From: a virus
Lineage: Duplodnaviria; Heunggongvirae; Uroviricota; Caudoviricetes
Virus record (IMG/VR): IMGVR_UViG_3300029288_000054
Location: 32,001-96,000 of that record
Length of the DNA stretch: 64,000 bases
Strand: one strand, 5' to 3'
The translations under genes were made by a program, and so were the position numbers. This document shows positions 22,563-40,316 of the stretch, one piece after another. A model generated the notes under the pieces. That model searched no databases. It was not told the DNA's origin and saw only the letters and a list, made by a program, of their open reading frames with translations. The first letter of the stretch is position 1, and every line of letters begins with the position of its first letter.

Positions 22563-22565
22563 ATC

Positions 22566-23711: not shown

Positions 23712-23714
23712 GTC

Positions 23715-24830
23715 TTAGAATTTGTTGAAGTATCTAGACAAGCAGAAATCGATCGGAACGTCGTCCAAAGCGGTGCCTATTTTCAAGATCGAAGTTGCAC
23801 CATTCGGTATCCCATAAATTATGCCGCTTGGAGTGACAACACAGCCAGCCGAGCTTCCACCAATAGACACAGTTCCGAATGTAGTTGCTGTATCTGTAGT
23901 TGGATCAATTTTTAAAATTGCTGTACTATTATGTGCTATTCCGTAAATCATGCCGTCTGGAGATAAAGCCCCACCAACCCATTTTCCTGTCCCAGTCAAG
24001 CTACCAAACGTAGTAACAGTATCAGTCGAAGGGTCAATTTTTATTCCTGTTGTTGCATTATACGGAATGCCATAGATGCAGCCATTCAGAGCTAAGACGC
24101 CACCATTCCATTTATATGTCGTTGCACCGAGGCTTCCAAACGTCGTGACAGTATCGGTGGTTGGATCGATTTTGAGAACGGACGGGCTTGTGCTAGGCAT
24201 CCCATAAATCATACCGTTTGGAGCCAAGACGCCGCCCCACGATATATATGTATATGCTGTTAAACTACCAAATGTTGTGAGCGTATCGGTATTTGTGTCG
24301 ATTTTCAAAATAGGTCCTGCTGCAGCCGGGATACAATAAATGCAGCCATTTGGAGCCACTACGCCACCTAAATATGCAATTGCAGTACCAAATGTTGTAT
24401 ATGTGTCTGTCGCAGGATCGATTTTAAGTACTGTTGTTGATCCTCCTGGGATACCATAAATATAACCATTCGGAGCTAAGACGCCACCAAACCATTTATT
24501 GCCGCTTGCGAAAGATCCGAATGTTGTAGATGTGTCGGTGGCTGGGTCTATTTTTAATATCTCGATCCCTGACTCTGGTATGCCATAGATGTATCCATTT
24601 GGAGCAAGTACCCCACCACGACAATGCGATGCTGCTGTAGCAAATGAAGATAAAGATTGATTAAAAGCAGCACGATTTAAACCAACTCTAGTACAGATAG
24701 CTTTTTGTATTTGCTGCCACGTCATCTTGTTGCTATCCCAAGCCGGAAAATCACCATGGCTTAGCATATCACCACTGGCTAGTGATCCGATTGAGCTCGA
24801 TTTCTCCACCAACGGCTTTTGATATGGCAT
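23715..24830 (-). CDS. Beta-propeller repeat protein, paralogue P4
   Basis: Start reassigned to MPYQKPL by paralogy. Same repeats. Confidence 0.85.
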   Translation of the reverse strand: MPYQKPLVEKSSSIGSLASGDMLSHGDFPAWDSNKMTWQQIQKAICTRVGLNRAAFNQSLSSFATAASHCRGGVLAPNGYIYGIPESGIEILKIDPATDTSTTFGSFASGNKWFGGVLAPNGYIYGIPGGSTTVLKIDPATDTYTTFGTAIAYLGGVVAPNGCIYCIPAAAGPILKIDTNTDTLTTFGSLTAYTYISWGGVLAPNGMIYGMPSTSPSVLKIDPTTDTVTTFGSLGATTYKWNGGVLALNGCIYGIPYNATTGIKIDPSTDTVTTFGSLTGTGKWVGGALSPDGMIYGIAHNSTAILKIDPTTDTATTFGTVSIGGSSAGCVVTPSGIIYGIPNGATSILKIGTALDDVPIDFCLSRYFNKF

Positions 24831-24832
24831 AA

Positions 24833-26431
24833 TTACACATAAATCGAGTATGTTATTTGAAGTTGGTCTGTTACTTCCAAGACTATACCAGTGCCAGTGA
24901 ATACGGCTGTAGCCCAGAGAATGTTGCTTGCTGATTTGTCTGCCTTTGTTTGTGCTGTAGGTCCGGCAGCCACAAATAGTCCGTTGATTGTACAATCAGC
25001 GGTGATAGTATAAAGAGACTTGACAACGTTCGTAATTGTTTGCGCCAATGCAGCATTTTTATTCCACATCGGCCTCGTATAAGTACTATTACTGGTGGTG
25101 TCAATATATGATGTGCACTCTAACCAATTATTACCTTGCAACGCCGTCAATTCGGCTTGCGGATACCATGTTAGCTCATTTGTGGCCGATGTGATATTGA
25201 TATATTCGAAATTAATCAAATCGGCCGTCTTAACGGCGGACGACACGCGTACCTCGTCCATCGACCCGGTGAAGAAAAGACTCGTCGTATAACCGCCAAT
25301 CGCATTACCAGTTCCGGTTGAATGCGTTATCGGATAGTTGCCAGCATAGTTAATTGTTGAATACCACTGACCATTGACGTATAACATCGCATCGCCGGTG
25401 GCACTATTATATGTCATTACCAGCCACGTCCAAGTTGATAGGCTGATCGGATATTGAAAATCAAATGCCCTCCAACCGGCGTTGAGATAAATATAACCTC
25501 CAATTTTGCTATCAGTATTGCGACCAACTTCTAGGACATAACCATTATCGAAACCGACTAAATTCGCGTCTGTATTGTAGGTCGGATTGACCCATGCTTC
25601 TACTGTAACATCTGCCACGGTCAGTGATGCGTTGTTTGGGATCGTGATACTTTTATTACTGTCGAAATATTCACCATATCCTAATACGCCAGTATTTCTT
25701 TCTGGTTGTCTGGTGGTGCTTGTGCTATTATTCGCGTTAATGGTGGAGTCATGATAGTCGCCAGCTACACCAGTCCCTATTTCATCGAGATGCCATGCCC
25801 CTTTATAATCTGTGCTCCAGGTACTAGCTGCCGCTTCTCCATCTGGTGCATTTGGATTACCGTAGTAAATGTAAAAGTCCGTTGGCTCTGTGTGGCTGAT
25901 GAGCGGGATCTGTACCCAAAAGACAGCAGTGACGGCTGAGCCATTCCCACCAGACCAATATTCACGTTCGTAATTCAACAAAGTAACGCCGTCAACTGCA
26001 CTGAATCTGATGTCGTACCCAGTAGCCAGCGCCGTTGTCATATCAACATCAGCGTTTATTTTGACACAGAGTGGAAAATTGACCAGATCATCAGCGCCGA
26101 CGTTTGTGTTGTCGATGGTGATTCGTTTGCGGTATTTCCAGTAATATCTCCAAACTGGTAGGCCAGAAAACGAGCTGGAATATAAATTCAACGCTTGGTA
26201 TGTGTCGATATCTGAGAGTGTGGAATAGCCGACACTATCGATCAGGCCAACAAACCATTTGGAATATTGTGCTCCATCATGAAAATTGGCATCGAGGATA
26301 CTGTCTTTACCAGCATTTAGAACGCCGTTTGGGATTCGGTAGGAATTAATTACCTTCCCGTGGCGTAAATGCTCGACGAAGAATTCACCTCTCGGCCTAA
26401 CGGAATTTTCAGCACTCGACTGTGTTTTCAT
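24833..26431 (-). CDS. Tail protein with an inserted DUF2341 + LamG (concanavalin A-like) cassette
   Basis: WKYRKRITID..LVNFP..DIRF..YIYYGN (DUF2341). TVEAWVNP..LYVNG..FTGSMDEVRVS (LamG). Flanks are homologous to 38499-39035. Confidence 0.8.
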   Translation of the reverse strand: MKTQSSAENSVRPRGEFFVEHLRHGKVINSYRIPNGVLNAGKDSILDANFHDGAQYSKWFVGLIDSVGYSTLSDIDTYQALNLYSSSFSGLPVWRYYWKYRKRITIDNTNVGADDLVNFPLCVKINADVDMTTALATGYDIRFSAVDGVTLLNYEREYWSGGNGSAVTAVFWVQIPLISHTEPTDFYIYYGNPNAPDGEAAASTWSTDYKGAWHLDEIGTGVAGDYHDSTINANNSTSTTRQPERNTGVLGYGEYFDSNKSITIPNNASLTVADVTVEAWVNPTYNTDANLVGFDNGYVLEVGRNTDSKIGGYIYLNAGWRAFDFQYPISLSTWTWLVMTYNSATGDAMLYVNGQWYSTINYAGNYPITHSTGTGNAIGGYTTSLFFTGSMDEVRVSSAVKTADLINFEYINITSATNELTWYPQAELTALQGNNWLECTSYIDTTSNSTYTRPMWNKNAALAQTITNVVKSLYTITADCTINGLFVAAGPTAQTKADKSASNILWATAVFTGTGIVLEVTDQLQITYSIYV

Positions 26432-26447
26432 AATATAAATTTGTCAT

Positions 26448-27872
26448 TTAGAGCTTGTTGTAATGCCTTGACAGGCAGAAATCAACCGGCACGTCATCCA
26501 GTGCGTAACCAATTTTCACGATCGTTGTGGCGGTGAATGGTATTCCATAGAGAATACCGCTCGGAGCCAAGATTACGCCAGCCCATTTTGTGGCACCAGA
26601 ACCAAGAGCTCCGAAAGTTGCAGCTGTATCGTTTGTTGGGTCGATTCTCAGTACTGTGGCTATACCTGTGCTATGTGGTGGAGCATAAATCATACCGTTC
26701 GGAGCCAATGCCCCAGCCATCCATTTATATGTTGTAGCACCAAGAGCACCGAAATAAGTGGCTGTATCTGTTGTTGTATCGATCTTCAAGAATGTTGCGG
26801 CGCTACACGGTATTCCGTAAATCATTCCATTTGGTGCTAGAACTCCATTATTCCATTTTGCTGCACTAGCACCAAGACTACCAAATGTCGTAGCCGTATC
26901 TGTATCTGGATCGATCTTTAGGACTGTTGCACTTGTATAAGGTGTACCATAAATGCATCCATTTGGAGCGAGACAACCGCCGACCCATTTTAATCCGGCA
27001 CCGAGACTACCAAATGTTGTAGCTGTGTCTGTAGTCGGATCGATCTTCAAGACTGTTGTGCTGTTGCACGGAATGCCATAAATCATACCATTCGCAGCCA
27101 AAACCGCACCCGCCCAATCGCTAGCACCAGCGCCGATCCCATCGGCAAATGTCGTTGATGTGTCCGTGGCCGGATCGATCTTCAAAATTGCGGTGCTGTC
27201 AGTAAAAGGGACGGCATAGATGTAACCGTTAGGAGCGAGCACACCACCATACCATTTTGCATTACCGGCATAGGTATCAAACGTCGTTGCCGTATCTGTG
27301 GTTGGATCGATCTTTAAGATCGAGTTTGATGCGTACGGAATACCATAAATGTAACCATTCGTTGCTAGTACACCTCCAAACCATTTATTTCCACCTGCTA
27401 ATGACCCAAATACTGTGGCAACTTGATTAAAGCATGCCGCATTTGCTTCAGCTCTAATATTGATAGCTTGTCGTGTTTGAGTCCAAGCTAGGCTATTAGT
27501 ATCCCATAGTGGAAAGTCGCCGTGGTTTACAACATCAACGTCAGTCAATTTTTGTATTGTACCGGACTTCACAACCATTGGCTTTTCATATTCTGGTGCA
27601 GCCGCATCTACGAGAGGGCTGGCGATTTGACCTAACACTAACGTATTCGATCCATCTAAGTCGTAATATGGCTCTGCTGTCAATATTTCAATGACTTGTC
27701 TGGTAGCTCGTGTCGTCCCATAAAGATATGGCGGTAAAGCATTGCCACCGCTTATCAGAACTTCTGTGATTTGTCTCGTGGCTCGCGTCGTCCCATACGT
27801 AAACGATGGCAAAACGTTGCCAGAGACCAAAACTTCCATTATTTGACGTGTGACTCGTGCTGTGCCAGCCAT
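26448..27872 (-). CDS. Beta-propeller repeat protein P3 with three N-terminal RxTRQxxEVL repeats
   Basis: ARVTRQIMEVL / TRATRQITEVL / TRATRQVIEIL followed by the propeller. Confidence 0.85.
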   Translation of the reverse strand: MAGTARVTRQIMEVLVSGNVLPSFTYGTTRATRQITEVLISGGNALPPYLYGTTRATRQVIEILTAEPYYDLDGSNTLVLGQIASPLVDAAAPEYEKPMVVKSGTIQKLTDVDVVNHGDFPLWDTNSLAWTQTRQAINIRAEANAACFNQVATVFGSLAGGNKWFGGVLATNGYIYGIPYASNSILKIDPTTDTATTFDTYAGNAKWYGGVLAPNGYIYAVPFTDSTAILKIDPATDTSTTFADGIGAGASDWAGAVLAANGMIYGIPCNSTTVLKIDPTTDTATTFGSLGAGLKWVGGCLAPNGCIYGTPYTSATVLKIDPDTDTATTFGSLGASAAKWNNGVLAPNGMIYGIPCSAATFLKIDTTTDTATYFGALGATTYKWMAGALAPNGMIYAPPHSTGIATVLRIDPTNDTAATFGALGSGATKWAGVILAPSGILYGIPFTATTIVKIGYALDDVPVDFCLSRHYNKL

Positions 27873-27874
27873 GA

Positions 27875-29296
27875 TTAAAACCTATTGAAATGCCGAGATA
27901 AACAGAAATCTAAAGGAACGTCATCGAGATCGCTACCAAGCTTCAATATTGTTGTGGCTCCAAAAGGGATACCATATATAATGCCGCTTGGTGCTAATAT
28001 CATACCGGTAAATTTGTAATCTTCAGCGGCAAGCGCTCCGAAAGTGGTAACAATATCAGTCGTTGGATCGATCTTCAATACCTGCAATATTGAAGAGTAG
28101 TATGGAGCGCAGTAGATCATTCCGTTTGGCGCTAGAGCACCAGTCCTCCATTTATATGTTGTTGTACCGAGACTGCCAAATGTCGTTGCCGTGTCTGTCG
28201 AAGGATCGACTTTTAGAACCGTCGCACTTGAATATGGAACTCCGTAGATACAGCCACTTGTGGCCGACATACCACCAAACCATTTGAATGTCCCAGTTAA
28301 TGATCCGAAAGTCGTTGCCGTGTCTGTCGAAGGATCGACTTTTAGAACCGTTGTGCTTGAATATGGAATTCCGTAGATGCAACCGTTTGGAGCGAGACAA
28401 CAACCCACCCATTTTGAACCAGCACCAAGACTACCAAAGGTTGTGGCCGTGTTGGTTGTTGGGTCGATCTTTAAAATAGACGTGTTGTTACATGGGACAC
28501 CATAAATCATGCCGTTGGCCGCTAGTACCGCACCGGACCAGTCGCTAGCACCGGTACCGATCCCATCAGCAAATGTTGTTGACGTATCGGTGGACGGATC
28601 GATCCTTAGAATAGCAGTGCTAGTAAATGGCACTGCATATATGTAACCATTAGGAGCTAGTACACCGCCACGCCATTTCGCACTACCAGCATAGTCGTCG
28701 AAGGTAGTCGCTGTATCTGTGGTCGGATCGATTTTCAATATTGAAGTACTGGTATATGGTATGCCATAAATCATACCGTTTGGTGCTATTACACCGCCCG
28801 CCCATTTATTGCCACCAGTGCTAAAACTTCCGAATGTTGTTGCGATTTGATTAAAGCAAGCTGCATTTGCTTCCGCTCTGACATCGATTGCCTGCCGTGT
28901 CTGTGTCCAGGCTAGGCTATCCGTCGACCAAAGCGGGAAGTCGCCGTGATTTACAACGTCTGTATTAGGTAGTGTTTGTATTCTGCCAGATCCAGATACA
29001 AGTGGTGCTTGATATTCTGCTGTAGTAGCGACCGACAATGGGCCAGCCAATTGACTAAGCACTATCGTGCTTGATCCATTGAGGTCATAATATGGGTCTG
29101 CGGTCAGGACTTCTATTATCTGTCTGCAAGCTGATGATGAGCCATAAGTATATGGAGGCAACGCATTGCCGCCGCTGACTAGAATTTCAACGATCTGTCT
29201 GGTCGTTCTCGATGTTCCGTAAGTATATGGCGGTAGTATATTGCCAGTCACCAAAACTTCAATTATTTGTCTCGTAGCACGTGCTGTTCCAGCCAT
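27875..29296 (-). CDS. Beta-propeller repeat protein P2 with three N-terminal RxTRQxxEVL repeats
   Basis: Start reassigned to MAGTARATRQ (TAATG overlap). Close paralogue of P3. Confidence 0.85.
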   Translation of the reverse strand: MAGTARATRQIIEVLVTGNILPPYTYGTSRTTRQIVEILVSGGNALPPYTYGSSSACRQIIEVLTADPYYDLNGSSTIVLSQLAGPLSVATTAEYQAPLVSGSGRIQTLPNTDVVNHGDFPLWSTDSLAWTQTRQAIDVRAEANAACFNQIATTFGSFSTGGNKWAGGVIAPNGMIYGIPYTSTSILKIDPTTDTATTFDDYAGSAKWRGGVLAPNGYIYAVPFTSTAILRIDPSTDTSTTFADGIGTGASDWSGAVLAANGMIYGVPCNNTSILKIDPTTNTATTFGSLGAGSKWVGCCLAPNGCIYGIPYSSTTVLKVDPSTDTATTFGSLTGTFKWFGGMSATSGCIYGVPYSSATVLKVDPSTDTATTFGSLGTTTYKWRTGALAPNGMIYCAPYYSSILQVLKIDPTTDIVTTFGALAAEDYKFTGMILAPSGIIYGIPFGATTILKLGSDLDDVPLDFCLSRHFNRF

Positions 29297-30312
29297 TACA
29301 TCACCCTCACTCCAATCAATGCCGATCCTAAACCAGCTATCGTCCAAGGTTGTCCGGTGTTTGGATCTATCGTACTGATATGTCGCACGTCGCCATAAGA
29401 CGAGCTACTTAGTACTGTATCAGGCCCTAATTCAGTGACGCCGTTTGATACGATAGGTGCTTCGAACACAATCGATACGCCTGCAGACAAAGCAACAGTA
29501 GAATTAACCTGTAATCCTAAAATAGTACCAGAACCAACTAGTGTTGGATATTCATATAGATCTGTGTTTGCTTGTGTGCTAGTTGAGACGTAATCTGTAG
29601 CAGCATTTGGCGGGTTTTCATCCACAAGATTATAGTGTGTTGAGCCGGTACTGGGTGCCCATTGTACTGTCGCCGTATCGGCCTTAGGAAAAATCCCGAC
29701 GACATTGCAGACACCTTGAAAGTTATTCAAGCTGGTGCCGGTACCATCACATATATAATAATCATCAATATAACCATATTCAAGATAGATTCTAACTCGA
29801 TCACAAAAAGCGTCAGCACCATTCTTCGTATCTATGCCGGATATCGACACGACTGTTGCGCCATTAATGCGTACTTCTACAGCTCCGCTTGTGTCGTGAC
29901 AGAACGACTTGACTTCAACATAATACCACGTATTGGTTAATAAAGTTGACGCTAATGTTGTTGTACTTAATGTAGTAGAACCGCGTTTAAGGACGACGGT
30001 TGATGGTACTGTTGGGTTAAATGTTACGTTTATACCTGCAGTCGCATTATCGACAAACGAAATAGCTCCAAAAGCATTTGTCTGTAGAAAGTAAAACGCA
30101 CAGCCAACAATGAGTGTTGGATCAATTGTCAAGGCTGGCGTAATAAAGCTCCAATTTATGTAGGCCGAATTCCAGCAATAACCAGAGACTCGGCCAGCAG
30201 CAATATATAAGTTACTAGCGGAAGAATCGGGATATCTATATTGTAATGACGCATTTGCAACACTGCCACTTGTCCCGTATCCTTCGAATCCATCTATCCA
30301 GATCAATGCCAT
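29296..30312 (-). CDS. LamG/ConA-like putative tail adhesin, array copy L9
   Basis: MALIWIDGFEGYG..WYYVEVK..VEVRING..DDYYICD..IGVRVM. Confidence 0.8.
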   Translation of the reverse strand: MALIWIDGFEGYGTSGSVANASLQYRYPDSSASNLYIAAGRVSGYCWNSAYINWSFITPALTIDPTLIVGCAFYFLQTNAFGAISFVDNATAGINVTFNPTVPSTVVLKRGSTTLSTTTLASTLLTNTWYYVEVKSFCHDTSGAVEVRINGATVVSISGIDTKNGADAFCDRVRIYLEYGYIDDYYICDGTGTSLNNFQGVCNVVGIFPKADTATVQWAPSTGSTHYNLVDENPPNAATDYVSTSTQANTDLYEYPTLVGSGTILGLQVNSTVALSAGVSIVFEAPIVSNGVTELGPDTVLSSSSYGDVRHISTIDPNTGQPWTIAGLGSALIGVRVM

Positions 30313-30322
30313 TTTAACCTCA

Positions 30323-31339
30323 CTACATAACTTTTAGACCGATTTGTGCTTCTGCAAGATTTGCTGCTGTCCAACCTGCTCCTGTATTCGGGTCTGTTTC
30401 ACTTATTCGGCGTATTTCTCCAAAAGTAGTACTTGTTAATGTCGTATCGACACCAAGGTCTATTACGCTATTTGATGAAATTGGTGCTTCGATAATTATT
30501 CCTATTCCAGATGCAAGTTTGCAGATGGTCGAAATTTGAATCCCGATTATAGTGTTCGCTATGCTCAGCATCTGATAATTATATAAGTCTATCTGTGCTT
30601 GTGTGCCGCTAGAGACGTAATCTGTCGTACTGTATGGATTTTCGTCGACTAGATTATAGTGCGTTAAACCAGTGCTTGGAGTCCATTGGACGGTTGCGGT
30701 GTCAGCTTTTGGTAATAATGGAAGTATCTTACAGACGCCCTGAAAATCGTTTGTAGTTGTACCAGAACTGTCGCAGATGTAAAAATCATCGTACCAGCAC
30801 CAATTAGATGATGAGAGTCTGACCTTATTATGGCACAGGTTTGTTCCAGCTTGTGTATTGATATCTGTAAGTGATATAATTGAAGTACCATTTATTCTTA
30901 TTTCCACAGTCCCAGCAGTAGGATGACAGAACACCTTAAGCTCGAAGTAGTACCAAGCGCCAGTCTGTAATGCTGGAACGATGTTAGTAGTATTAATGAC
31001 TGTACCACCTAGCTTCACTACTATAGTCGATGTAGGAGCAGTCGCACTAATAACTATATTCAAGCCGATGACTGCAGTATCTAGAAACGTTAGCGTTGCT
31101 GTGGTAGTGGTACCTTCGAAGTATAATGCTATGCCCGTAATCAGTGTTTGGTCGCCTGTTAATACGGGCGTCGTAAATGAGTTGGTATAGGATTGCATAC
31201 TGTAGCCAGTTGATCGACCGGCTTTTAAATAGCAATTGCTAGTACTAGAGCCAGGATATCTGAAAGTTAAACTAGAAGACGGCGTACCACCTACTGTCAC
31301 GCCATAACTCTCAAATCCGTCTATCCAAAGCAGTGCCAT
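30323..31339 (-). CDS. LamG/ConA-like putative tail adhesin, array copy L8
   Basis: Same framework; ends IGLKVM. Confidence 0.8.
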   Translation of the reverse strand: MALLWIDGFESYGVTVGGTPSSSLTFRYPGSSTSNCYLKAGRSTGYSMQSYTNSFTTPVLTGDQTLITGIALYFEGTTTTATLTFLDTAVIGLNIVISATAPTSTIVVKLGGTVINTTNIVPALQTGAWYYFELKVFCHPTAGTVEIRINGTSIISLTDINTQAGTNLCHNKVRLSSSNWCWYDDFYICDSSGTTTNDFQGVCKILPLLPKADTATVQWTPSTGLTHYNLVDENPYSTTDYVSSGTQAQIDLYNYQMLSIANTIIGIQISTICKLASGIGIIIEAPISSNSVIDLGVDTTLTSTTFGEIRRISETDPNTGAGWTAANLAEAQIGLKVM

Positions 31340-32380
31340 TTACATCACCCTCACGCCTATCTGTGCTGCGTTCAATCCAGCCGCCGTCCATGGTTGATTT
31401 GTGTTCGGATCGAATTCACTTATATGTTGATATTCATAATAGCTGCTACTGGTTAGAGTGTAATCGGGGCCGAGATCAGTCGCCCCATTTGATACAATAG
31501 GCGACTCAAGAATAATAGAATCACCGGCAGATAACGATGCCTCTGTGTTAAGCTGAATACCAAGAATTTCACCATTACCATCGTAATTAATCAAGCTTGG
31601 GTAAGTAAAAAGATCTGTATCAGTTTGTGTACTGCTAGAAATATAAGTAGTATTGCCATCTGCTGGATTTTCATCTACTCTGTTATAATGAGTGGTGCCT
31701 GAATTTGGTGTCCAATCTACAATCTCAGTGTCTGCACTTGGAAATAAACCTATTATTCTGCATATACCTTGAAACCCATTTACTCCAGAGCCAGTGGCAT
31801 CACAGATATAGAAGTCATCTAAAAATTGTTTCAGATATAATGATATTCTGACCTTATCGTGATATGTATTTGCACCAGCTTGAGTATTAATACCGGCTAG
31901 CAGTATAATTGTTTTACCATCTATCCGTACCTCTACTGTACCGCTTGTTGGATGACAAAACACTTTCATTTCCAAATAGTACCAAGTATCAAGCAGCAAC
32001 GTGCTGCTAGAATATGTTGCGAGTGTCGTGTCACCAAGACTTAATGTTATGATGGATGGATAGTTGTGAGGATGAATCGTTATATTAATGCCTTTAGTAG
32101 CTCCATCAAATAATTCAATCGTTGTTATAGCTTCGACAACCTGCCACGATAACGCACATCCGATTGTTAGTGTTGGGTCGATTGTCAGAGCAGGTGTTGT
32201 TATGGCACTTGTTGCACCAGTAGTAAAATGATAGCAGCAATATCCACCAACCCGACCAACTCCGACATACCAGCGATCGTCTTGTACACCGTAGCGTCTT
32301 TGTTGCAATAGAGACGTTATGGCTGAAGAGATCTGTGGCGGGCCATATCCCTCGAATCCGTCTATCCAAAGCAATGCCAT
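31340..32380 (-). CDS. LamG/ConA-like putative tail adhesin, array copy L7
   Basis: Same framework; ends IGVRVM. Confidence 0.8.
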   Translation of the reverse strand: MALLWIDGFEGYGPPQISSAITSLLQQRRYGVQDDRWYVGVGRVGGYCCYHFTTGATSAITTPALTIDPTLTIGCALSWQVVEAITTIELFDGATKGINITIHPHNYPSIITLSLGDTTLATYSSSTLLLDTWYYLEMKVFCHPTSGTVEVRIDGKTIILLAGINTQAGANTYHDKVRISLYLKQFLDDFYICDATGSGVNGFQGICRIIGLFPSADTEIVDWTPNSGTTHYNRVDENPADGNTTYISSSTQTDTDLFTYPSLINYDGNGEILGIQLNTEASLSAGDSIILESPIVSNGATDLGPDYTLTSSSYYEYQHISEFDPNTNQPWTAAGLNAAQIGVRVM

Positions 32381-33400
32381 TTACATCACCTTTATTCCAA
32401 ATTGCGCTGCAGCTAAGCCTTCTATTGTCCAAGGTTCTCCTGTGTTGGGGTCTACTTCACTAATATGTCTCAATTCTTGATAGCTAGAGCTTGAATAAAC
32501 AGATTTTGGTCCTAAATCGACTATATCATTCGATACGATCGGGGCCTCAATAATCACTGATGTACCACTATTCAACATAACCATAGAGCTTATTTGTATT
32601 CCAAGAATAGGATCGGTCCTAATTATACTTGGGTAAGAGTATAAATCCTCTTGTGCTTGCACATTACCTAATACATAACCTGCGGTATCAGGTGGATTTT
32701 CATTCACCAGATTATAGTGTGTTATCCCAGTGCTTGGTGTCCACTGGTTTGTTTCTGTGTCAGCATCCGGAAATAAACCGATAATTGAGCATATACCCTG
32801 AAAATCGTTGCATGCAGTTCCAGAGCCATCACAGATGTAAAAGTCGTCTGTCCACGAATGTGGTGTCATGTCGAATCTAACTATATTGTGGAAAGCATCT
32901 ATACCTGCTTGTGTATTGATATCAGCAATAGACACGATTGTTGTGCCATTTAGACGAACTTCAATGCTACCGTTTGTTGGATGGCATACCACTTTCATTT
33001 CGATATAGTACCATACATTCATTAAAAATGTGAAATCGGTGAAAGTGTCGACAACAGATCCTCCTACTTTTACAACGATAGTTGAGGGGCTACTTGCACT
33101 TAGTCTAATATTGACGCCTTGCTGTGAATTATCATAAAACGAAATAATCTGAGTATAAGTTGTGGCGTCCCACATGAATGCGGCACCGAAAATAAGCGTG
33201 GGATCTTCTGTTAATGGTGGCGTCCAAAATCCAGTAACAGTACTATTTGCTGTGTTATGGTATGAAAATCCAGATAACCGTCCGACACCCACACCGGCAT
33301 ATGCTCCGCCATAGACGCCATAGCCACGCTGCGAGAGCTTGGTGTCGAGAGCACCAGTCGTCCCGTATCCTTCAAATCCGTCTATCCAAAGTAAAGCCAT
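32381..33400 (-). CDS. LamG/ConA-like putative tail adhesin, array copy L6
   Basis: Same framework; ends FGIKVM. Confidence 0.8.
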   Translation of the reverse strand: MALLWIDGFEGYGTTGALDTKLSQRGYGVYGGAYAGVGVGRLSGFSYHNTANSTVTGFWTPPLTEDPTLIFGAAFMWDATTYTQIISFYDNSQQGVNIRLSASSPSTIVVKVGGSVVDTFTDFTFLMNVWYYIEMKVVCHPTNGSIEVRLNGTTIVSIADINTQAGIDAFHNIVRFDMTPHSWTDDFYICDGSGTACNDFQGICSIIGLFPDADTETNQWTPSTGITHYNLVNENPPDTAGYVLGNVQAQEDLYSYPSIIRTDPILGIQISSMVMLNSGTSVIIEAPIVSNDIVDLGPKSVYSSSSYQELRHISEVDPNTGEPWTIEGLAAAQFGIKVM

Positions 33401-34431
33401 TACATCACCCTCACGCCTATTTGTGCTGCGTTCAGTCCATCTACCGTCCAGACAGAACCGGTGTGCGGATTTGTCGTACTGATATGTTTAAAGTCCGTAT
33501 AGGTGCCGCTCGTCAGCGTATAGTCAGGACCTAAATCGGTAGTCCCATCCGATACTACCGGTGTTTGTAGAACAATCGAAGTACCATCCGATAGCATCGC
33601 TTGTGTGTTCAATTGGAATCCAATGATCGTACCAGTACCGATTAGATCTGGATATGTGTAAAGATCGGTATTGGTTTGAGTACTGCTAAAAATATAATCA
33701 CTGGTATTTGGTGGGTTGCTATCAACGAGGTTGTAGTGTGTGCTCCCAGAACTTGGTGTCCATTCGATAGTGTCTGTATCGGCGTTCGGTAGTAGGCCGA
33801 CCACTTTACAAACGCCCTGTAAGTTGTTGACTGTCGTACCAGAACCATCACAAACATAAAAATCGTCAAGATAATTAAATTGGGCACCAGTTAAGCTCAC
33901 TTTATCGTGATATGCATGAGCACCAGTCTGTGTGTTAATGCCTGTTAGTGATATGACCGTAACTCCATCTATCCGTACCTCTACTGTACCACTCGTAGGA
34001 TGGCAGAACACTTTCATTTCTAGGTGATACCACTCACTATATCGCATAGTAAAAGAAGAATATGTAGTGATTGTACTTGCGCCAAGATTTAATGTGAGTG
34101 TCGACGGTGCAGTCGGTCTCAATATAGCATTTATCCCAAGTGTCGCTCCATCATAGAAATTAATCGATGATGTGTTATTGCCAAAAAACATAAAAGCACA
34201 ACCTGCTATCAATGTCGAATCTGTTGTTAGTGCTGGAGTAGTGAATATCACCTTATTTAGGCTGTCATGTGCGACGTTATTACGTATGCTATAACCAAAC
34301 ATTTTCCCTGCTGCGATATAAGTGTAGCTAGAAACGTCTGAGTAACCACGTGCGGCTAAAATAGAAGAGCTGACATAGCTACCAGTAACCACTCCGTATC
34401 CTTCGAATCCATCTATCCAAAGTAATGCCAT
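33400..34431 (-). CDS. LamG/ConA-like putative tail adhesin, array copy L5
   Basis: Same framework; ends IGVRVM. Confidence 0.8.
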   Translation of the reverse strand: MALLWIDGFEGYGVVTGSYVSSSILAARGYSDVSSYTYIAAGKMFGYSIRNNVAHDSLNKVIFTTPALTTDSTLIAGCAFMFFGNNTSSINFYDGATLGINAILRPTAPSTLTLNLGASTITTYSSFTMRYSEWYHLEMKVFCHPTSGTVEVRIDGVTVISLTGINTQTGAHAYHDKVSLTGAQFNYLDDFYVCDGSGTTVNNLQGVCKVVGLLPNADTDTIEWTPSSGSTHYNLVDSNPPNTSDYIFSSTQTNTDLYTYPDLIGTGTIIGFQLNTQAMLSDGTSIVLQTPVVSDGTTDLGPDYTLTSGTYTDFKHISTTNPHTGSVWTVDGLNAAQIGVRVM

Positions 34432-35454
34432 TTACATTGCCTTTATTCCAATTTGGGCTGCTGCCAAGTCCGCAACCGTCCATGCTGTTCCCGTATCTGG
34501 ATTTGTCATACTGATATGGCGAGCGTCGTAATAAGATGAGCTTAAAATTTGGGTATCTGGTCCAAAATCGATTATCCCGTTTGACACTATTGGTGACTCG
34601 ATAATAACGGATGTACCTGATGGCAGACTCGCTTGTGTGTTTACTTGGATGCCAATGATTGTAGTATCGCCAGTCAGGGAAGGATACGAATATAGATCTG
34701 TATCCGATTGTGTGCCAGTCGAGACGTAATCTGATGTATTTCGCGGATTTTCATTTACCAAATTGTAGTGAGTCGTTCCGGTACTCGGTGCCCATTGTAT
34801 TGTGGCTGTATCAGCATTTGGAAAGATACCAATAACCTTACAGACTCCCTGGAAATCGTTACAGGTCGCACCAGTGCCATCGCAGACGTAAAAATCGTCA
34901 CATTGACTGTGATAACTCCCTCCCAAGCTGACCATATTATAATAGGGCTCAGCTCCCGTTTGTGTATTTATACCACTTAGTGAAATGATTGTCGTGCCGT
35001 TTAGGCGTACTTCAATTGTACCGTCAGTTGGATGACAAAGTACTTTAACTTCTAGATAATACCAGATATTTGTATTAATTAAGACTTGGAAACCAGAAAA
35101 GGTTTCAAGCGCAGTATCGCCCAAGTTCGCCGTAATACTTGATGAAGAGGCTGGATTAAATACGACATTCACACCCAATGTGCCGTTATAATAAAAACTG
35201 ATACCAGCGTAGCGATCACTAAAGGGAAAATAAAAAGCACAGCCAGCTATCAGCGTAGAATCAGTGGTCAGTGCTGGAGTTGTAAGCAAACTCCCAAAGT
35301 TGGATATATTTGGCTTCGCGCCATATCCAAACATTCTTCCAGTAGTTAAGTAAGTAGAGCTATTAACATATGAATAGCCTCTTGCTGGTATGTAGGCATT
35401 GCTACCGATCGTTGTGCCGTATCCTTCGAAGCCTTCGATCCAAAGTAGTGCCAT
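34432..35454 (-). CDS. LamG/ConA-like putative tail adhesin, array copy L4
   Basis: Start reassigned to MALLWIEGFE; ends IGIKAM. Confidence 0.8.
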   Translation of the reverse strand: MALLWIEGFEGYGTTIGSNAYIPARGYSYVNSSTYLTTGRMFGYGAKPNISNFGSLLTTPALTTDSTLIAGCAFYFPFSDRYAGISFYYNGTLGVNVVFNPASSSSITANLGDTALETFSGFQVLINTNIWYYLEVKVLCHPTDGTIEVRLNGTTIISLSGINTQTGAEPYYNMVSLGGSYHSQCDDFYVCDGTGATCNDFQGVCKVIGIFPNADTATIQWAPSTGTTHYNLVNENPRNTSDYVSTGTQSDTDLYSYPSLTGDTTIIGIQVNTQASLPSGTSVIIESPIVSNGIIDFGPDTQILSSSYYDARHISMTNPDTGTAWTVADLAAAQIGIKAM

Positions 35455-36479
35455 TACATCACCCTCATTCCGATATGTGCTGCTGTGAGATCGGCTATTG
35501 TCCACGGTTGGTTTGTATTGGGGTCTATTTCGCTTATGTGTCTTATCTCTACATAGCTTGCACTAGACAACAGATAATCCGGGCCAAGATCGGTTATACC
35601 ATTTGACACAATCGGTGCTTCGACAATTATTGACGCCCCAGCCGATAATATGATCTGTGAGGTTACTTGTAGGCCGATAATGGTGCCGGTACCAATCAAT
35701 GACGGATAATGGTAGAGATCGGTGTCGCCCTGCGTGCTTGTGTAAACATAATCTGTTGTATTCGCAGGATTTTCATCAATGAGATTATAGTGTGTTGTAC
35801 CCGAACTCGTGGTCCATTGTACTGTCTCGGTATCTGAATCTGGAAACAGACCCAGGACTCTACAAGCACCTTGAAAATCATTGCATGTACCTGTACTATC
35901 ACATATATAAAAATCATCAAAGCGCTGTGATTGATATGCTGAAACCTTAACCATATTATGCCAAGCATTCGTACCAGACTGCGTATTGATACCTGTTAAC
36001 GATATAATAGTGACACCATTTAAACGGACTTCTGCAGTACCGCTAGTTGCATGACAAAAAACCTTAAATTCGATGTAGTACCATGTACCGAGTATGAATG
36101 TGAAATCTGTGAAAGTTGCTAACGTAGTAGCTCCGCGTTTAAGCACAATTGTTGATGTTGGGGTAGTTGGAGTCAATGTTATATTTATGCCTAGTGTCGC
36201 ATTATCATATAATGCAAGTGTTGATGTAGAAATTGCGTTTAATGCAGTATAAGCACAACCAACTATGAGCGTCGAATCGGATGTCAGTACTGGTGTCTGA
36301 AATGTAGCTGTTGCTGTGCTATCGGTGTGACCGAATGCACATCCTGTTATTCTGCCCACGGCAAGTTCCATATAACTGCTGCCTGATGCAGTATATCCAC
36401 GGACTCCCAATCTAGCATATAATCCGGCTGTGCCAACAGGGCCGTATCCTTCAAATCCGTCAATCCAAAGTAAAGCCAT
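35454..36479 (-). CDS. LamG/ConA-like putative tail adhesin, array copy L3
   Basis: Start reassigned to MALLWIDGFE; ends IGMRVM. Confidence 0.8.
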   Translation of the reverse strand: MALLWIDGFEGYGPVGTAGLYARLGVRGYTASGSSYMELAVGRITGCAFGHTDSTATATFQTPVLTSDSTLIVGCAYTALNAISTSTLALYDNATLGINITLTPTTPTSTIVLKRGATTLATFTDFTFILGTWYYIEFKVFCHATSGTAEVRLNGVTIISLTGINTQSGTNAWHNMVKVSAYQSQRFDDFYICDSTGTCNDFQGACRVLGLFPDSDTETVQWTTSSGTTHYNLIDENPANTTDYVYTSTQGDTDLYHYPSLIGTGTIIGLQVTSQIILSAGASIIVEAPIVSNGITDLGPDYLLSSASYVEIRHISEIDPNTNQPWTIADLTAAHIGMRVM

Positions 36480-37492
36480 TATATCGCCTTTATCCCAATT
36501 TGTGCTGCGTTTAGACCGTCTATAGTCCATGCAGAACTTGTATATGGATCTGTAGTGCTTATATGCCGATAATCGGCATATGAAGCACTCGTCAGTGTTG
36601 TATCAGGCCCAATTTCAGTGGTTCCGTTTGATATGATTGGTGTTTGTAGGATAATCGACGTTCCAGCAGATAATCGTGCTTGCGTGTTTAACTGCAAGCC
36701 CTTGATCGTACCTGTACCAATTAGATGAGGATAATCATATAGATCCATCAACGTTTGTGTGCTCGTATAGACATAATCGGTATCACCATTTGCCGGATTA
36801 TCGTCTACGAGACTGTAGTGAGTAGATTCTGCACTCGGTGTCCACTGCACTGTATCTGTATCACCGCTTGGCAATAAACCAACGACTTTGCAAATGCCTT
36901 GGAAATCGTTGCATGTCGATCCAGAGCCGTCGCAGACGTAGAAGTCGTCAACATACGTATTTGTGGCAGCGTTGAAATTAAGTTTGTTATGATAGTCATG
37001 AGCACCAGCTTTCGTATTAATGCCGGTGATCGATATTATCGTTTTATTGTCTATTCGTACTTCAACGGAACCGCTAGACGCATGACAGAACACCTTCATT
37101 TCGATATAATGCCATTTCGGCATAGTAGAAAACGACGAGTCCGAAGCGATCGTAGAATTGCCAAGTCTAACTGTCACTGTTGCTGGCGTACCTGGCTGAA
37201 ACGTAACGTTCATGCCGTACGTTCCGTCGTCATACATTCCAAGGTTGATGTAATTACTAGAGCCAAAATAAACAGCACAACCGAATATGAAGGTAGAATC
37301 AGTTGTCAATGCTGGCGTTATTAGCACATTAGATTGACCTACGTTAAAATATAAGCAATAGCCGATTTTGTTGCCTATGCCAATATAATAACTGCCGCCT
37401 GTGTTACCATAACCACGTGCAGCTAATAGACTAGAAGCGATACCATCGGTTCCGCCGTATCCTTCGAATCCATCTATCCAAAGTAGTGCCAT
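36479..37492 (-). CDS. LamG/ConA-like putative tail adhesin, array copy L2
   Basis: Same framework; ends IGIKAI. Confidence 0.8.
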   Translation of the reverse strand: MALLWIDGFEGYGGTDGIASSLLAARGYGNTGGSYYIGIGNKIGYCLYFNVGQSNVLITPALTTDSTFIFGCAVYFGSSNYINLGMYDDGTYGMNVTFQPGTPATVTVRLGNSTIASDSSFSTMPKWHYIEMKVFCHASSGSVEVRIDNKTIISITGINTKAGAHDYHNKLNFNAATNTYVDDFYVCDGSGSTCNDFQGICKVVGLLPSGDTDTVQWTPSAESTHYSLVDDNPANGDTDYVYTSTQTLMDLYDYPHLIGTGTIKGLQLNTQARLSAGTSIILQTPIISNGTTEIGPDTTLTSASYADYRHISTTDPYTSSAWTIDGLNAAQIGIKAI

Positions 37493-38487
37493 TACATTAC
37501 CCTTACACCGATCTTGGCTGCTGCTAGGGTATCAACTGTCCACGCTTCACCTGTTCCTGGATCAACTGTACTGGTGCGTCGAATATCAACATATCCAGCA
37601 CCACTTGTCTGGATATCATCACCAACGTCTGTCACGCCATTAGATAATATCGGCGATTCAATCAAGACAGAAGATCCTGACTGAACTGATACTTGCGTGT
37701 TTATCTGTAATCCTAAGATTGTGCTGTCGCCAGTTAAACTCGGATATCCATATAAATCGGTTTGGGTTTGCGTTCCACTCGAAACGTAATCCGTCGAATT
37801 AGCTGGATTTTCATCAACCAGATTATAATGCGTTGTGCCTGTGCTTGGTGTCCATTGTATTGTTTCTGTGTCTGAATTCGGAAATATGGCGGCTATTTTG
37901 CAAACTCCCAAGAGATCATTAGCCGTGTCTCCAGACCCATCACAAATATAAAAATCATCTATTCGAGCAGTTGAGCCACCTGTTACTCTGACAATGTTGT
38001 AGTAAGCCTCGGTACCAGTTTGAGTATTGATGTCAGTTATGAGCGTAATTGTAGTGCCATTTATTCGGACTTCTATGCTGCCATTTGTTGGATGGCATAT
38101 ACACTTCATTTCTATATAGTACCAGGGATTAGAAAGAGTGAACGACGTATTTGTGTCGAGAGTAGTACCACCGAGTTTGGTTGTTAAAGACGTTGACGTT
38201 ATCAAAATGTTTGGACCTTGAACGCCATTGTAATAAAACTGTAGTCCTATACCTGAACCAACCTGAAAAGCGATACCAGAAATAAGTGTGCTATCTGTTG
38301 TTAGGATTGGCGTTATCAATGTGTTGCCATTTGATATATTACAATATAGGCTATAACCATAAAGTCTGCCGATAGCAATATTTGGGCTACCGCCGACAGT
38401 CGTGTAGCCGCGAGCATATATTAAAGCTGCTGCGACACCGCCGGTTCCGCCGTAGCCCTCGAATCCATCAATCCAAAGTAAAGCCAT
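37492..38487 (-). CDS. LamG/ConA-like putative tail adhesin, array copy L1
   Basis: Same framework; ends IGVRVM. Confidence 0.8.
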   Translation of the reverse strand: MALLWIDGFEGYGGTGGVAAALIYARGYTTVGGSPNIAIGRLYGYSLYCNISNGNTLITPILTTDSTLISGIAFQVGSGIGLQFYYNGVQGPNILITSTSLTTKLGGTTLDTNTSFTLSNPWYYIEMKCICHPTNGSIEVRINGTTITLITDINTQTGTEAYYNIVRVTGGSTARIDDFYICDGSGDTANDLLGVCKIAAIFPNSDTETIQWTPSTGTTHYNLVDENPANSTDYVSSGTQTQTDLYGYPSLTGDSTILGLQINTQVSVQSGSSVLIESPILSNGVTDVGDDIQTSGAGYVDIRRTSTVDPGTGEAWTVDTLAAAKIGVRVM

Positions 38488-38498
38488 CACACTACCCT

Positions 38499-39035
38499 TT
38501 ACGCATTTACGGTATAGACGACTCTAAGTAAGCTTCCAATGAACACTGGGATGTTGCCGGCAGTGAACAGAGCGGTTGCCCAAAGAATGCTGTTGTCGCC
38601 TGTGTGGTCGTTTTTGAACTGTGCATTCGGAGAGCCGCCAACTACAAACAAACCTTTGACGATGCCAACAGCAGTACATGTAAATAAAGCTTTGGTCGTG
38701 TTCGTTGTAGCTTGACCAGACGCCGCATCAGTGACCCAGATCGGCCTAGTCGTCGCATCATCGGCGTTATTTGTATCTGTATAGCTGTCAAATTCGTCCC
38801 AGCCGTTAGTCAGATTGATATTCCGATAAACATCAGTAGCGGCTAATGCGGAATAGCCAACATTGTCGATCAGACTAAGATACCAAGCGGTGATCTTCGG
38901 AGTATCATTCCATCCGATGTCGAGGAATCTATTCTTACCCTCGTTTGTTGTATCGTTCTTGCACGGATAGATGCCTATCAACTCGCCATTATACCAGTGC
39001 TCAACGGAAAATCTGCCGCGTAAATGAAGATCCAT
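38499..39035 (-). CDS. Small tail/baseplate-associated protein
   Basis: GRFSVEH..NxxTNEGKN..WYLSLI..GLFV..LWATALF..LRVVYTV, a common phage tail-protein pattern. First gene of the array operon. Confidence 0.7.
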   Translation of the reverse strand: MDLHLRGRFSVEHWYNGELIGIYPCKNDTTNEGKNRFLDIGWNDTPKITAWYLSLIDNVGYSALAATDVYRNINLTNGWDEFDSYTDTNNADDATTRPIWVTDAASGQATTNTTKALFTCTAVGIVKGLFVVGGSPNAQFKNDHTGDNSILWATALFTAGNIPVFIGSLLRVVYTVNA

Positions 39036-39122
39036 GGCAATTTCTTCTTTTAGTAGTAGTACGAAATGGTTTACGATAAATTTGAATTATCGTTAACCAT
39101 ACCTACTAAACGGCAAAGTACA

Positions 39123-40256
39123 TCAGTACTTGTTGAAATGCCGAGATAAGCAGAAATCGAGTGGAACGTCATCTGCTTCCGTGCCAATTTTTATAACCGT
39201 CGTTCCAGCGTTATTCGGCACAGCATAAATGATCCCATTTGGAGCAAGAGCACAACCGCTCCATTTTGCACCAGTTCCTAAGCTACCAAAGGTGACAACT
39301 GTATCAGTTGTCGGATCGATCATTAAAATAGTTGTTATAGAAGCACTATTCGTAGCGGCATAAATCATTCCATTTGGAGCTAGAGACCCGCCGAACCACT
39401 TGTATGTAGTGGTGCCGAGCGAGCCGAAGGTCGTCACCGTATCTGTAGTAGGATCGATTTTCAACACTGCTGCATTACTGGACGGTATTCCATAAATCAT
39501 TCCATTCGGAGCCAGCACAGCACCAGACCATTTATAAGTCCCCGTGACCACAGAACCAAACGTCGTTATTGTATCAGTTGTTGGGTCGATCTTTAATATA
39601 GTCGTTGCGGTATATGGAATAGCATAAATCATGCCATTTGGAGCTAGGCAACCACCATACCAATTATCGGCACTTGCTAAATCACCGAATATCGTATATG
39701 TATCGGTCGTAGGGTCGATCTTTAGCACACCAGCATAATAACGTGGTGGCGAATAAATCATTCCATTTGCAGCAAGAATACTGCTTACAAATTTAGAGCT
39801 GCCGCTAAAAGTTCCGAAGGTTGTGCATGTGTCCGTCGTTGGGTCGATCTTTAATATAGCATCCGATCCATATGGTGCAGCATAAATCATGCCGTTTGGC
39901 GCTAAGCAACCACCGGCCCATTTATATGTCGTTGCTCCTAGGTCGCCGAATGTGGTAATGGCATCTGTGGTTGTATCAATCTTAAGTACTACTGCACTTG
40001 TAGACGGTATTCCATAGATGCATGAGTTAGGTGCCAATACAGCACCTTGGAATCCGGTAGCGGTAGAAATCTGAGAGGTCGTTCTTTGAGAACAAGCATA
40101 ATTTAATCCGACCCGCGCACAAACGGCTTTCTGTACTTGCTGCCATGCTAGCTTATTCACCTCCCATGCAGGGAAGTCGCCATGATTCAGCATATCTCCG
40201 CTACTTAACGAGCTTATAGAGTTAGCTTTTTCGACTAGTGGTTTTTGATATGCCAT
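39123..40256 (-). CDS. Beta-propeller repeat protein, paralogue P1
   Basis: MAYQKPLVEK..; seven repeats; ends SRHFNKY. Closest to P4 at the N-terminus. Confidence 0.85.
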   Translation of the reverse strand: MAYQKPLVEKANSISSLSSGDMLNHGDFPAWEVNKLAWQQVQKAVCARVGLNYACSQRTTSQISTATGFQGAVLAPNSCIYGIPSTSAVVLKIDTTTDAITTFGDLGATTYKWAGGCLAPNGMIYAAPYGSDAILKIDPTTDTCTTFGTFSGSSKFVSSILAANGMIYSPPRYYAGVLKIDPTTDTYTIFGDLASADNWYGGCLAPNGMIYAIPYTATTILKIDPTTDTITTFGSVVTGTYKWSGAVLAPNGMIYGIPSSNAAVLKIDPTTDTVTTFGSLGTTTYKWFGGSLAPNGMIYAATNSASITTILMIDPTTDTVVTFGSLGTGAKWSGCALAPNGIIYAVPNNAGTTVIKIGTEADDVPLDFCLSRHFNKY

Positions 40257-40316
40257 AACAAAATAATTTTGACATATAACAAGCCTGTCGTCCGCTGCTC
40301 GGAAAGTGCATCCGGA

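Follow-up and report, generated by a model that had tools for sequence, protein, structure and literature searches.

We analyzed an array of nine paralogous genes in a tailed phage of the class Caudoviricetes. The window, by which we mean the whole stretch of DNA under study, comprises 64,000 nucleotides (positions 32,001 to 96,000) of the IMG/VR virus record IMGVR_UViG_3300029288_000054; the record is 388,105 bp long and has a completeness rating of 99%. Nine consecutive, co-oriented minus-strand genes, here called W1 to W9 (Table 1), fill positions 29296-38487 of the window, and these are exactly the copies present in the entire genome. Counted from the conserved MAL(L/I)WI(D/E)GFE start, each encodes 331-346 residues; the mechanical list of open reading frames (ORFs), in which the nine lie between 29296 and 38490, gives two of them a spurious 17-residue N-terminal extension. 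The array is preceded by the gene for a small protein homologous to a subunit of a structurally solved chain-like fiber and is followed by two genes (R1 and R2) for beta-propellers bearing a repeated peptide motif. Together, these genes may encode the parts of one modular virion fiber.

The genes of the array are tightly spaced, with start-to-start distances of 995-1041 nt. Junctions between paralogs consist of a 1-nt overlap (TAATG), directly abutting genes or a 10-nt gap, and the stop codon of W9 overlaps the ATG of R1 by 1 nt. Such stop/start overlaps continue along the whole operon, and this coupling argues that all nine genes are co-expressed. At the junctions within 29296-38490, the C-terminal codons (...G(V/I)(R/K)(V/A)M stop) hold the Shine-Dalgarno-like sequences GGGTGATG/AGGGTAATG just 5' of the next ATG, so that bases coding for the C-terminus of one paralog double as the ribosome-binding site for the copy that follows.

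An initial annotation, made from the sequence alone, had described nine consecutive paralogs of this length with a shared framework and variable N-terminal loops. The alignment of the nine bears out the array and its framework, in that the motifs listed there are among 75 invariant columns. Pairwise identity among the paralogs is 45-60% (mean 52%), and the N-terminal half is indeed the more variable one: residues 1-205 have a mean column entropy of 1.29, versus 0.96 for residues 206-346 (Mann-Whitney p 6e-4), and pairwise identity is 48% versus 57% for the two halves. The proposal that this variation resides in loops rich in Y, S, N, G and T stands only in part. Length differences do concentrate in the N-terminal domain, which holds about 20 of the 29 gapped alignment columns and 7 of the 10 indel sites, but its strands are as variable as its loops (entropy 1.31 versus 1.28), and the share of these five residues in variable columns is only modestly raised (47.7% versus 41.3%). 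Residues 1-10 hardly vary at all (entropy 0.1 across the nine), and the variable stretches are residues 11-60, 80-130 and 171-190. Across 70 family members, E137 and D188 never change, and D189 is almost invariant (at least 90%).

Synonymous sites are saturated among the paralogs, with a mean proportion of synonymous differences (pS) of 0.76 (range 0.68-0.87) and fewer than two synonymous substitutions per site (dS<2) in only 1 of 36 pairs; ratios of nonsynonymous to synonymous change (dN/dS) are therefore not usable here. Positions 29000-39100 contain no inverted repeats, and repeated DNA segments there do not exceed 84% identity over 32-300 nt. Together with the saturation, this shows that the array is not a recent amplification, a target of a diversity-generating retroelement or a set of invertible cassettes. 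Judged by sequence divergence, the array is ancient and its copies diverged by old duplication, in agreement with the earlier suggestion of duplication rather than a retroelement or invertase. A quick IQ-TREE phylogeny with Shimodaira-Hasegawa-like approximate likelihood ratio test (SH-aLRT) support likewise placed several duplications before the divergence of these phages, and it showed independent expansions in other clades.

All nine proteins match the phrog_2448 hidden Markov model end to end, from positions 1-2 to positions 332-333 of 335 (E 2.8e-28 to 9.2e-41). phrog_2448 is a family of unknown function, whose members in cultured phages are annotated at most as 'putative tail fiber'. It is a large one, with 16,930 representatives at 50% identity (E<=1e-3), 2,416 of them below 1e-30. 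Its Atlas clusters are nearly all viral and unnamed, and the nearest named cluster is Laminin_G_3 (score 0.95). A Pfam search of the nine proteins gave no match at E<=1, PF13385 (Laminin_G_3) included, and 1 of 120 homologs (P0093) has a precomputed PF13385 match. A PDB sequence search with the family profile also gave no match.

An AlphaFold2 model of W7, built with 70 homologs, has a predicted local distance difference test score (pLDDT) of 95.3 and a predicted template modeling score (pTM) of 0.93. In this model, residues 1 to about 205 form a two-sheet jelly roll of the ConA/LamG type by VIA structural comparison. Matches include the lectin domain of sialidase BT_1020 (5mqs; Z 17.4, root-mean-square deviation 2.9, 170 residues aligned), galactocerebrosidase (3zr5; Z 17.3) and three phage tail structures, namely the second carbohydrate-binding module (CBM2) of the evolved distal tail protein (Dit) of Lactobacillus phage J-1 (5ly8; Z 16.5), a baseplate chain of mycobacteriophage Douge (8zdo; Z 16.2) and the receptor-binding domain of TM4 gp23 (9n6a; Z 15.5). 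At Z>=8 there are 276 matching chains, mainly lectins, carbohydrate-binding modules (CBMs) and glucanases. The LamG-like character assigned in the initial annotation thus holds for the predicted fold of the N-terminal domain (Z 17.4) but has no counterpart among Pfam LamG matches at E<=1. The last 142 residues, modeled alone (pLDDT 94.4), form a CBM/galactose-binding-like jelly roll whose best structural matches (Z up to 8.0) are nearly all CBMs; a Foldseek search with this domain returned nothing at E<=1e-3. No solved structure covers both domains together. Predicted viral structures match both at template modeling scores of 0.75-0.86; among them are several Chi-like phage proteins and a protein of Achromobacter phage AchV4 annotated as a virion structural protein.

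Other arrangements of these domains were also seen. In P0175 and P0248 (about 990-1000 residues), five N-terminal ConA-like domains alone follow one another in tandem, as if the array were condensed in one polypeptide. Two giant proteins, P0206 and P0260 (3358 and 3447 residues), contain two tandem full-length phrog_2448 units; they are listed by NCBI under the dinoflagellate Durusdinium trenchii, which could reflect contamination, a viral insertion or gene transfer.

The gene upstream of W1 encodes a 178-residue protein of phrog_8123. A profile of 30 homologs, with this protein as its first row, matched PDB chain 26la_U/44nx over 148 of 175 positions (E 1.2e-12); the 178-residue protein searched alone did not reach 26la_U. 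This chain is gp41, 'fiber II', of the Pseudomonas podophage A1002 (PMC13730344), and a 73-residue stretch of it is 100% identical to ORF007 of Pseudomonas phage KPP25. In A1002, eleven dimers of gp40 and gp41 form a chain-like fiber, in which these beads dock by beta-sheet augmentation on the fiber-dock domain of a 'nozzle-rope' protein (PMC13730344). The same rope-and-bead principle is at work in the podophages GP4 and VP1 and, in the myophage Bas63, in the collar whiskers (PMC13730344; PMC12609058), and the presence of two subunit types on one fiber was presented as a first for A1002 (PMC13730344). In KPP25, the bead genes lie directly 5' of the rope gene, whose product carries the rope part N-terminal to the tail-anchoring part. 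We also considered the C-terminal domain of the paralogs as a chain-fiber bead fold, a candidate that gained no support, its matches being only generically CBM-like.

Downstream of the array, R1 and R2 each begin with an N-terminal extension of about 95 residues containing three RxTRQxxEVL repeats, followed by a beta-propeller of the tachylectin/DUF6923 type. The six repeats are near-uniform. Among the propellers of the window, only these two, which adjoin the array, have the repeat extension; the other four begin at MAYQKPL. A PDB sequence search with the repeat region alone gave no match.

To compare genomic contexts, we gathered 74 viral contigs with the family profile. About half have one copy and the others two, three, four or five. 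Tandem arrays are common in metagenomes, and the nine of the window form the largest array seen in this comparison. The dominant gene order runs from a P22-type major head protein to the tape measure, a phrog_8123 protein of 160-240 residues, one to five family members, a protein called D1 (about 400-830 residues, commonly about 500), a 127-residue paralog of the D1 C-terminal domain, and a protein of about 980 residues (D3) with a weak match to the central tail fiber J. The order from the tape measure to the J-like protein recurs in more than 60 uncultured siphophage-like contigs. A widespread uncultured siphophage-like clade (L005-L076) has contigs reaching about 175 kb, and it combines a P22-type coat protein with a set order of tail-tip genes. 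The D1, D2 and D3 proteins of this clade have no Pfam or PDB relatives, apart from the weak J-like PHROG match of D3; PDB sequence searches with D1 and D3 profiles gave no matches, and none of 50,697 cultured phage records contains a D1 relative.

The association of the three gene types is close. In 61 of 76 loci, the first family member is immediately preceded by a phrog_8123 bead gene, and where bead genes lack a family member behind them, a repeat protein follows in 1 of 5 cases. The proteins encoded downstream of the family carry two to five RxTRQxxEVL repeats at their N-termini, and at least two such motifs occur in the gene directly after the last family member at 51-53 phylogenetically related loci, versus 7 of 1095 other genes. 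D1 opens with two or three LRVTRQxxEVL copies; about ten degenerate segments of the LxLxQ type come next, and a conserved C-terminal domain completes the protein. The repeats are borne by three unrelated bodies, which are the D1 tail-tip domain, short proteins of 188-293 residues at a different genomic position and the megaphage propeller, and this indicates that the repeat travels with the phrog_2448 family and not with one tail protein. In addition, a natural fusion, P0200 (820 residues), joins a family member through a 7-residue linker to an ARVTQMLIEAY segment, LxLSQ repeats and the D1 anchor, and is present as three sequence variants on nine contigs. It shows that a family protein remains functional while attached to the N-terminal end of the rope, beside a docking-type repeat. 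A homolog search aimed at longer fused forms returned none, a result of little weight; the fusions were retrieved by the exhaustive search of representatives. As a separate observation, the degenerate segments of D1 (in L072:12103-13491 and others) are 12-20-residue xSxLxLSQxx units lying between the RVTRQ repeats and the C-terminal domain. By analogy with the A1002 fiber-dock domain, they could be docking sites for the phrog_8123 bead.

Family members sit in the tail modules of both cultured and uncultured phages. Cultured representatives, which carry single genes or pairs, include phages of Brevundimonas, Sphingomonas, Mesorhizobium and Pseudomonas (Lu11 and HRDY3) and 'Tetraselmis viridis virus' phages. 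In Sphingomonas phage Lucius, the member is annotated as a 'putative tail fiber' and is the last gene of the tail module; in Brevundimonas phage Delta, its neighbors are minor tail proteins; and in Pseudomonas phage Lu11, it is placed after two sheath genes. The closest relatives of the window keep the local order around differing numbers of copies, with three in L003 (a 364-kb contig), three plus two in L004 (185 kb), four in L079 (59 kb) and at least three in L078. Orthologs of W1, W2 and W4 occur in the same order in L078 (72-78% identity), with none for W3, and L079 begins with orthologs of W4 and W5. The initial annotation had proposed a comparison of copy number across related contigs; under the same flanking genes, 3, 3+2, 4 or 9 copies are held.

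Table 1. Genes of the array and associated bead and repeat-propeller genes (window coordinates).
Feature	Position	Strand	Remarks
Second bead-type gene, 532 aa	24833..26431	-	DUF2341 + Laminin_G_3 cassette in a loop
R2, rope-propeller	26448..27872	-	three RxTRQxxEVL repeats; DUF6923 E 1.1e-18
R1, rope-propeller	27875..29296	-	DUF6923 E 4.5e-14; Tachylectin E 1.2e-5 (below curated cut-off)
W9	29296..30312	-	338 aa; phrog_2448 E 2.8e-28
W8	30323..31339	-	338 aa; phrog_2448 E 3.4e-34
W7 (modeled paralog)	31340..32380	-	346 aa; phrog_2448 E 9.2e-41
W6	32381..33400	-	339 aa; phrog_2448 E 4.4e-32
W5	33400..34431	-	343 aa; phrog_2448 E 1.1e-31; 72% ortholog in L079
W4	34432..35454	-	340 aa; phrog_2448 E 5.7e-31; 78-82% orthologs in L078 and L079
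W3	35454..36479	-	341 aa; phrog_2448 E 6.4e-36; no L078 ortholog between its W2-like and W4-like genes
W2	36479..37492	-	337 aa; phrog_2448 E 2.1e-37; 75% ortholog second in L078
W1	37492..38487	-	331 aa; phrog_2448 E 1.7e-32; 72% ortholog also first in L078
phrog_8123 'bead' protein, 178 aa	38499..39035	-	first gene of the sub-operon; phrog_8123 E 9e-5

A second bead-type gene is the first gene of the next sub-operon and is followed by three propellers. Its 532-residue product aligns with the 178-residue bead by BLASTP in two segments, residues 6-75 of the shorter protein with 14-83 of the longer (E 5e-16) and residues 77-176 with 434-530 (E 3e-19). Between residues of about 83 and 434, the longer protein holds a cassette of about 330-350 residues that matches the Pfam families Laminin_G_3 (8e-19) and DUF2341 (6.5e-9). 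The same cassette is found in two phrog_2448 members, L004:16268-18313 and P0214, near the C-terminus at profile position of about 320. The insertion of one cassette in both a bead and family members points to a display-scaffold role for the two kinds of protein.

The window contains six DUF6923/tachylectin-like beta-propeller paralogs in all, within 21423-29296 and 39123-40256 of the minus strand, which are 55-59% identical. They share a C-terminal DDVPxDFCLSRHFNKF and an N-terminal YQKPLVxKSxxIQxL segment, and these conserved ends may be docking or anchoring elements of their own. The ORF at 23715-24995 probably begins at an internal MPYQKP, which would make its overlap with 24833-26431 an artifact of ORF calling. 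In the short gaps 5' of three adhesin sub-operons, a CAAA(T/A)TTAT sequence occurs on the minus strand at 39076-39084 (preceding the bead gene), 26435-26443 (preceding the next sub-operon) and 40263-40271. As a promoter candidate, the broader motif CAAANWTAT was rejected, with 9 occurrences in the window versus 7.4 expected and hence no enrichment.

Based on these data, we propose, with about an even chance of being right, that the virion has a modular fiber of the 'beads-on-a-rope' kind, on which the nine proteins are lectin-like cargo subunits that can replace one another. The operon would supply three parts, which are the small bead, the nine paralogs and the two repeat-bearing propellers. 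Each RxTRQxxEVL repeat would act as a short beta-strand docking peptide that takes one paralog, or a dimer of one paralog. It would be gripped by the part of the paralog that does not vary, that is, the N-terminal MALLWIDGFE strand and the WYYxExK/DDFYxCD core, in a manner akin to the beta-augmentation of the rope by the beads of A1002, GP4 and Bas63. Residues 1-10, WYYxExK, DDFYxCD, E137, D188 and D189 form the candidate surface for holding the Arg-rich RxTRQxxEVL strand, and the variable segments of the N-terminal domain are candidate ligand contacts. The virion would then display a mixture of variable N-domain surfaces together with the propellers, and the outcome would be a multivalent, multi-specific adhesion to glycans of the host surface. 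Given an invariant docking surface and near-uniform repeats, any paralog could occupy any site. We infer the docking on repeats, the mixed occupancy, the glycan binding and the position in the virion from these patterns. The conserved triad of bead, paralog and repeat protein fits the initial annotation's idea of a repertoire on one scaffold.

A bolder version of this proposal, which we hold tentatively and consider possible rather than probable, is that RxTRQxxEVL and the invariant N-terminal face of phrog_2448 constitute a universal plug-and-socket in thousands of phage lineages. Exchangeable lectin heads would hang on tail fibers in a cohesin-dockerin-like manner, and the phage of the window would be the extreme case, with nine heads competing for six sockets on two propeller-tipped ropes.

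Several observations weigh against the proposed fiber. Gene order, a single fusion of neighboring genes and analogy are what connect the paralogs with the repeats. The 51-53 loci with repeat proteins are not independent events, since they are phylogenetically related, and P0200 is modest evidence, since the loss of one stop codon can join adjacent genes. Copy number is not proportional to repeat number, with one to five copies facing two or three repeats in other phages and nine facing two times three here. The paralogs also show no likeness to the known beads. An hhalign comparison of the family and bead profiles gave a probability of 0.1%, and the 50 best matches of the C-terminal domain by VIA or Foldseek included no bead structure, although absence from such a list does not exclude kinship. 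The cultured phages Lucius and TvV-S20 have family members with no repeat protein nearby. Finally, the megaphage repeat proteins end in a propeller with no recognizable virion anchor, and the array lies far from the tail sheath gene of the 388,105-bp genome.

Some of these points favor a different arrangement, in which the paralogs serve the tail as lectin-like subunits for receptor binding or adhesion but are attached otherwise, for example through baseplate oligomerization or bead binding, while the repeats have another role, such as oligomerizing or extending the downstream protein. The folds and the tail-module context are independent of the docking idea, and the lack of a repeat protein in cultured phages and of a correlation between copies and repeats would be expected under such an arrangement. 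However, it leaves unexplained why the repeat extension is confined to the two propellers adjacent to the array, why repeats appear behind the family on three unrelated bodies, and the fusion P0200. We regard attachment by these other routes as somewhat unlikely.

The initial annotation had offered a second possibility, a hetero-oligomeric fiber with a different paralog at each position. In this reading, the nine would be fixed, position-specific subunits of one structure, a fiber or the baseplate periphery, with a mainly architectural role. Several positional orthologs in relatives are 72-82% identical, in spite of identities of about 50% between paralogs, which indicates that each copy is individually maintained; the tight translational coupling would also suit equimolar production. 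Against this, relatives with the same flanking genes manage on 3, 4 or 3+2 copies, and in one of them no W3 stands between W2 and W4. The framework, including the N-terminal strand, is moreover identical in the nine, with the variation lying in the N-terminal domain, and the six repeats are near-uniform. Uniform docking parts combined with cassettes gained and lost among relatives favor mixed occupancy, or a repertoire, over a fixed hetero-oligomer, which we consider improbable.

Could the paralogs instead be polysaccharide-degrading lyases or glycanases of the ConA fold, forming a depolymerase set on the virion? Alginate and glucuronan lyases and enzymes of glycoside hydrolase family 16 (GH16) are among the best N-domain matches (Z 14-17), and the conservation of E137, D188 and D189 in the 70 members might suggest catalytic residues. 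Yet neither the GH16 ExDxxE motif nor a motif of the polysaccharide lyase family 7 (PL7) type was seen on visual inspection of the alignment, searches of Pfam and PHROG matched no enzyme family, and the ConA fold is common to lectins and enzymes. The conserved residues lie alongside the unvarying N-terminal strand, where they may have a structural role or belong to a docking surface. An enzymatic role thus appears very doubtful. That the proteins decorate the capsid, or are non-virion products such as host-surface modifiers made during infection, is scarcely credible: the distance of the array from the sheath gene would fit, but more than 60 contigs keep the position directly after the tape measure, the neighboring gene is a homolog of a fiber bead of known structure, and distant relatives are annotated as tail fiber or virion structural protein.

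Compared with the chain-like fibers, the proposed beads-on-a-rope fiber shows likenesses and differences. The gene directly upstream of the array is of the same family as A1002 gp41, small subunit genes lie directly before a protein with N-terminal repeats in both KPP25/A1002 and the window, and several kinds of subunit per rope are found in both. However, the paralogs of the window are two-domain proteins of about 340 residues unrelated to the beads of 140-171 residues, and the fiber-dock sequence of A1002 differs from the RxTRQxxEVL motif. The chain-like fibers have one or two subunit types, compared with up to nine for the family studied here, and their rope ends in a nozzle or collar domain, whereas the megaphage rope ends in a beta-propeller and would receive its subunits by the proposed docking. 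The CBMs of siphophage baseplates (5ly8, 8zdo and 9n6a) share the ConA-like fold of the N-terminal domain (172-177 residues aligned, Z 15.5-16.5) and are modules at the periphery of the tail tip with a presumed role in binding host glycans, to which the N-domain may be likened. They are 7-9% identical to it, and they are inserted in Dit or fused to fibers rather than encoded as free-standing multi-copy genes. In the cellulosome, the cohesin-dockerin system attaches many cargo proteins through one conserved docking element to repeated scaffoldin sites, giving mixed, multivalent assemblies. The analogy extends to the working principle alone: the two systems have neither folds nor sequences in common, and scaffoldins belong to an extracellular complex of bacteria.

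The phrog_2448 family itself and the ConA fold are of known kinds, and its tandem arrays are frequent in metagenomes. To the single genes and pairs of cultured phages, the window adds a nine-gene array, a defined (predicted) fold and a conserved three-gene module. Among the papers searched for these PHROGs and for chain-like fibers, we found no description of the triad of bead, paralog and repeat protein or of its connection with chain-like fibers, and none of a fiber module with nine distinct two-domain subunits.

Together, these observations provide a large family that lacked a function with a fold, a tail or peripheral-fiber context, a three-gene module and a candidate docking partner, and they link it to the rope-and-bead fibers whose resolution by cryo-electron microscopy began only in 2023-2026. 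If docking on the repeats is correct, the recurrent tandem arrays of one to nine copies would be explained, and many uncultured phages, huge ones included, would set their host recognition by swapping whole lectin cassettes on a common socket. If the plug-and-socket holds as well, virions with combinatorially different sets of adhesins would arise from one genome with no DNA rearrangement. Docking of this kind would also offer a natural modular scaffold for host-range studies in laboratory phage-host pairs.

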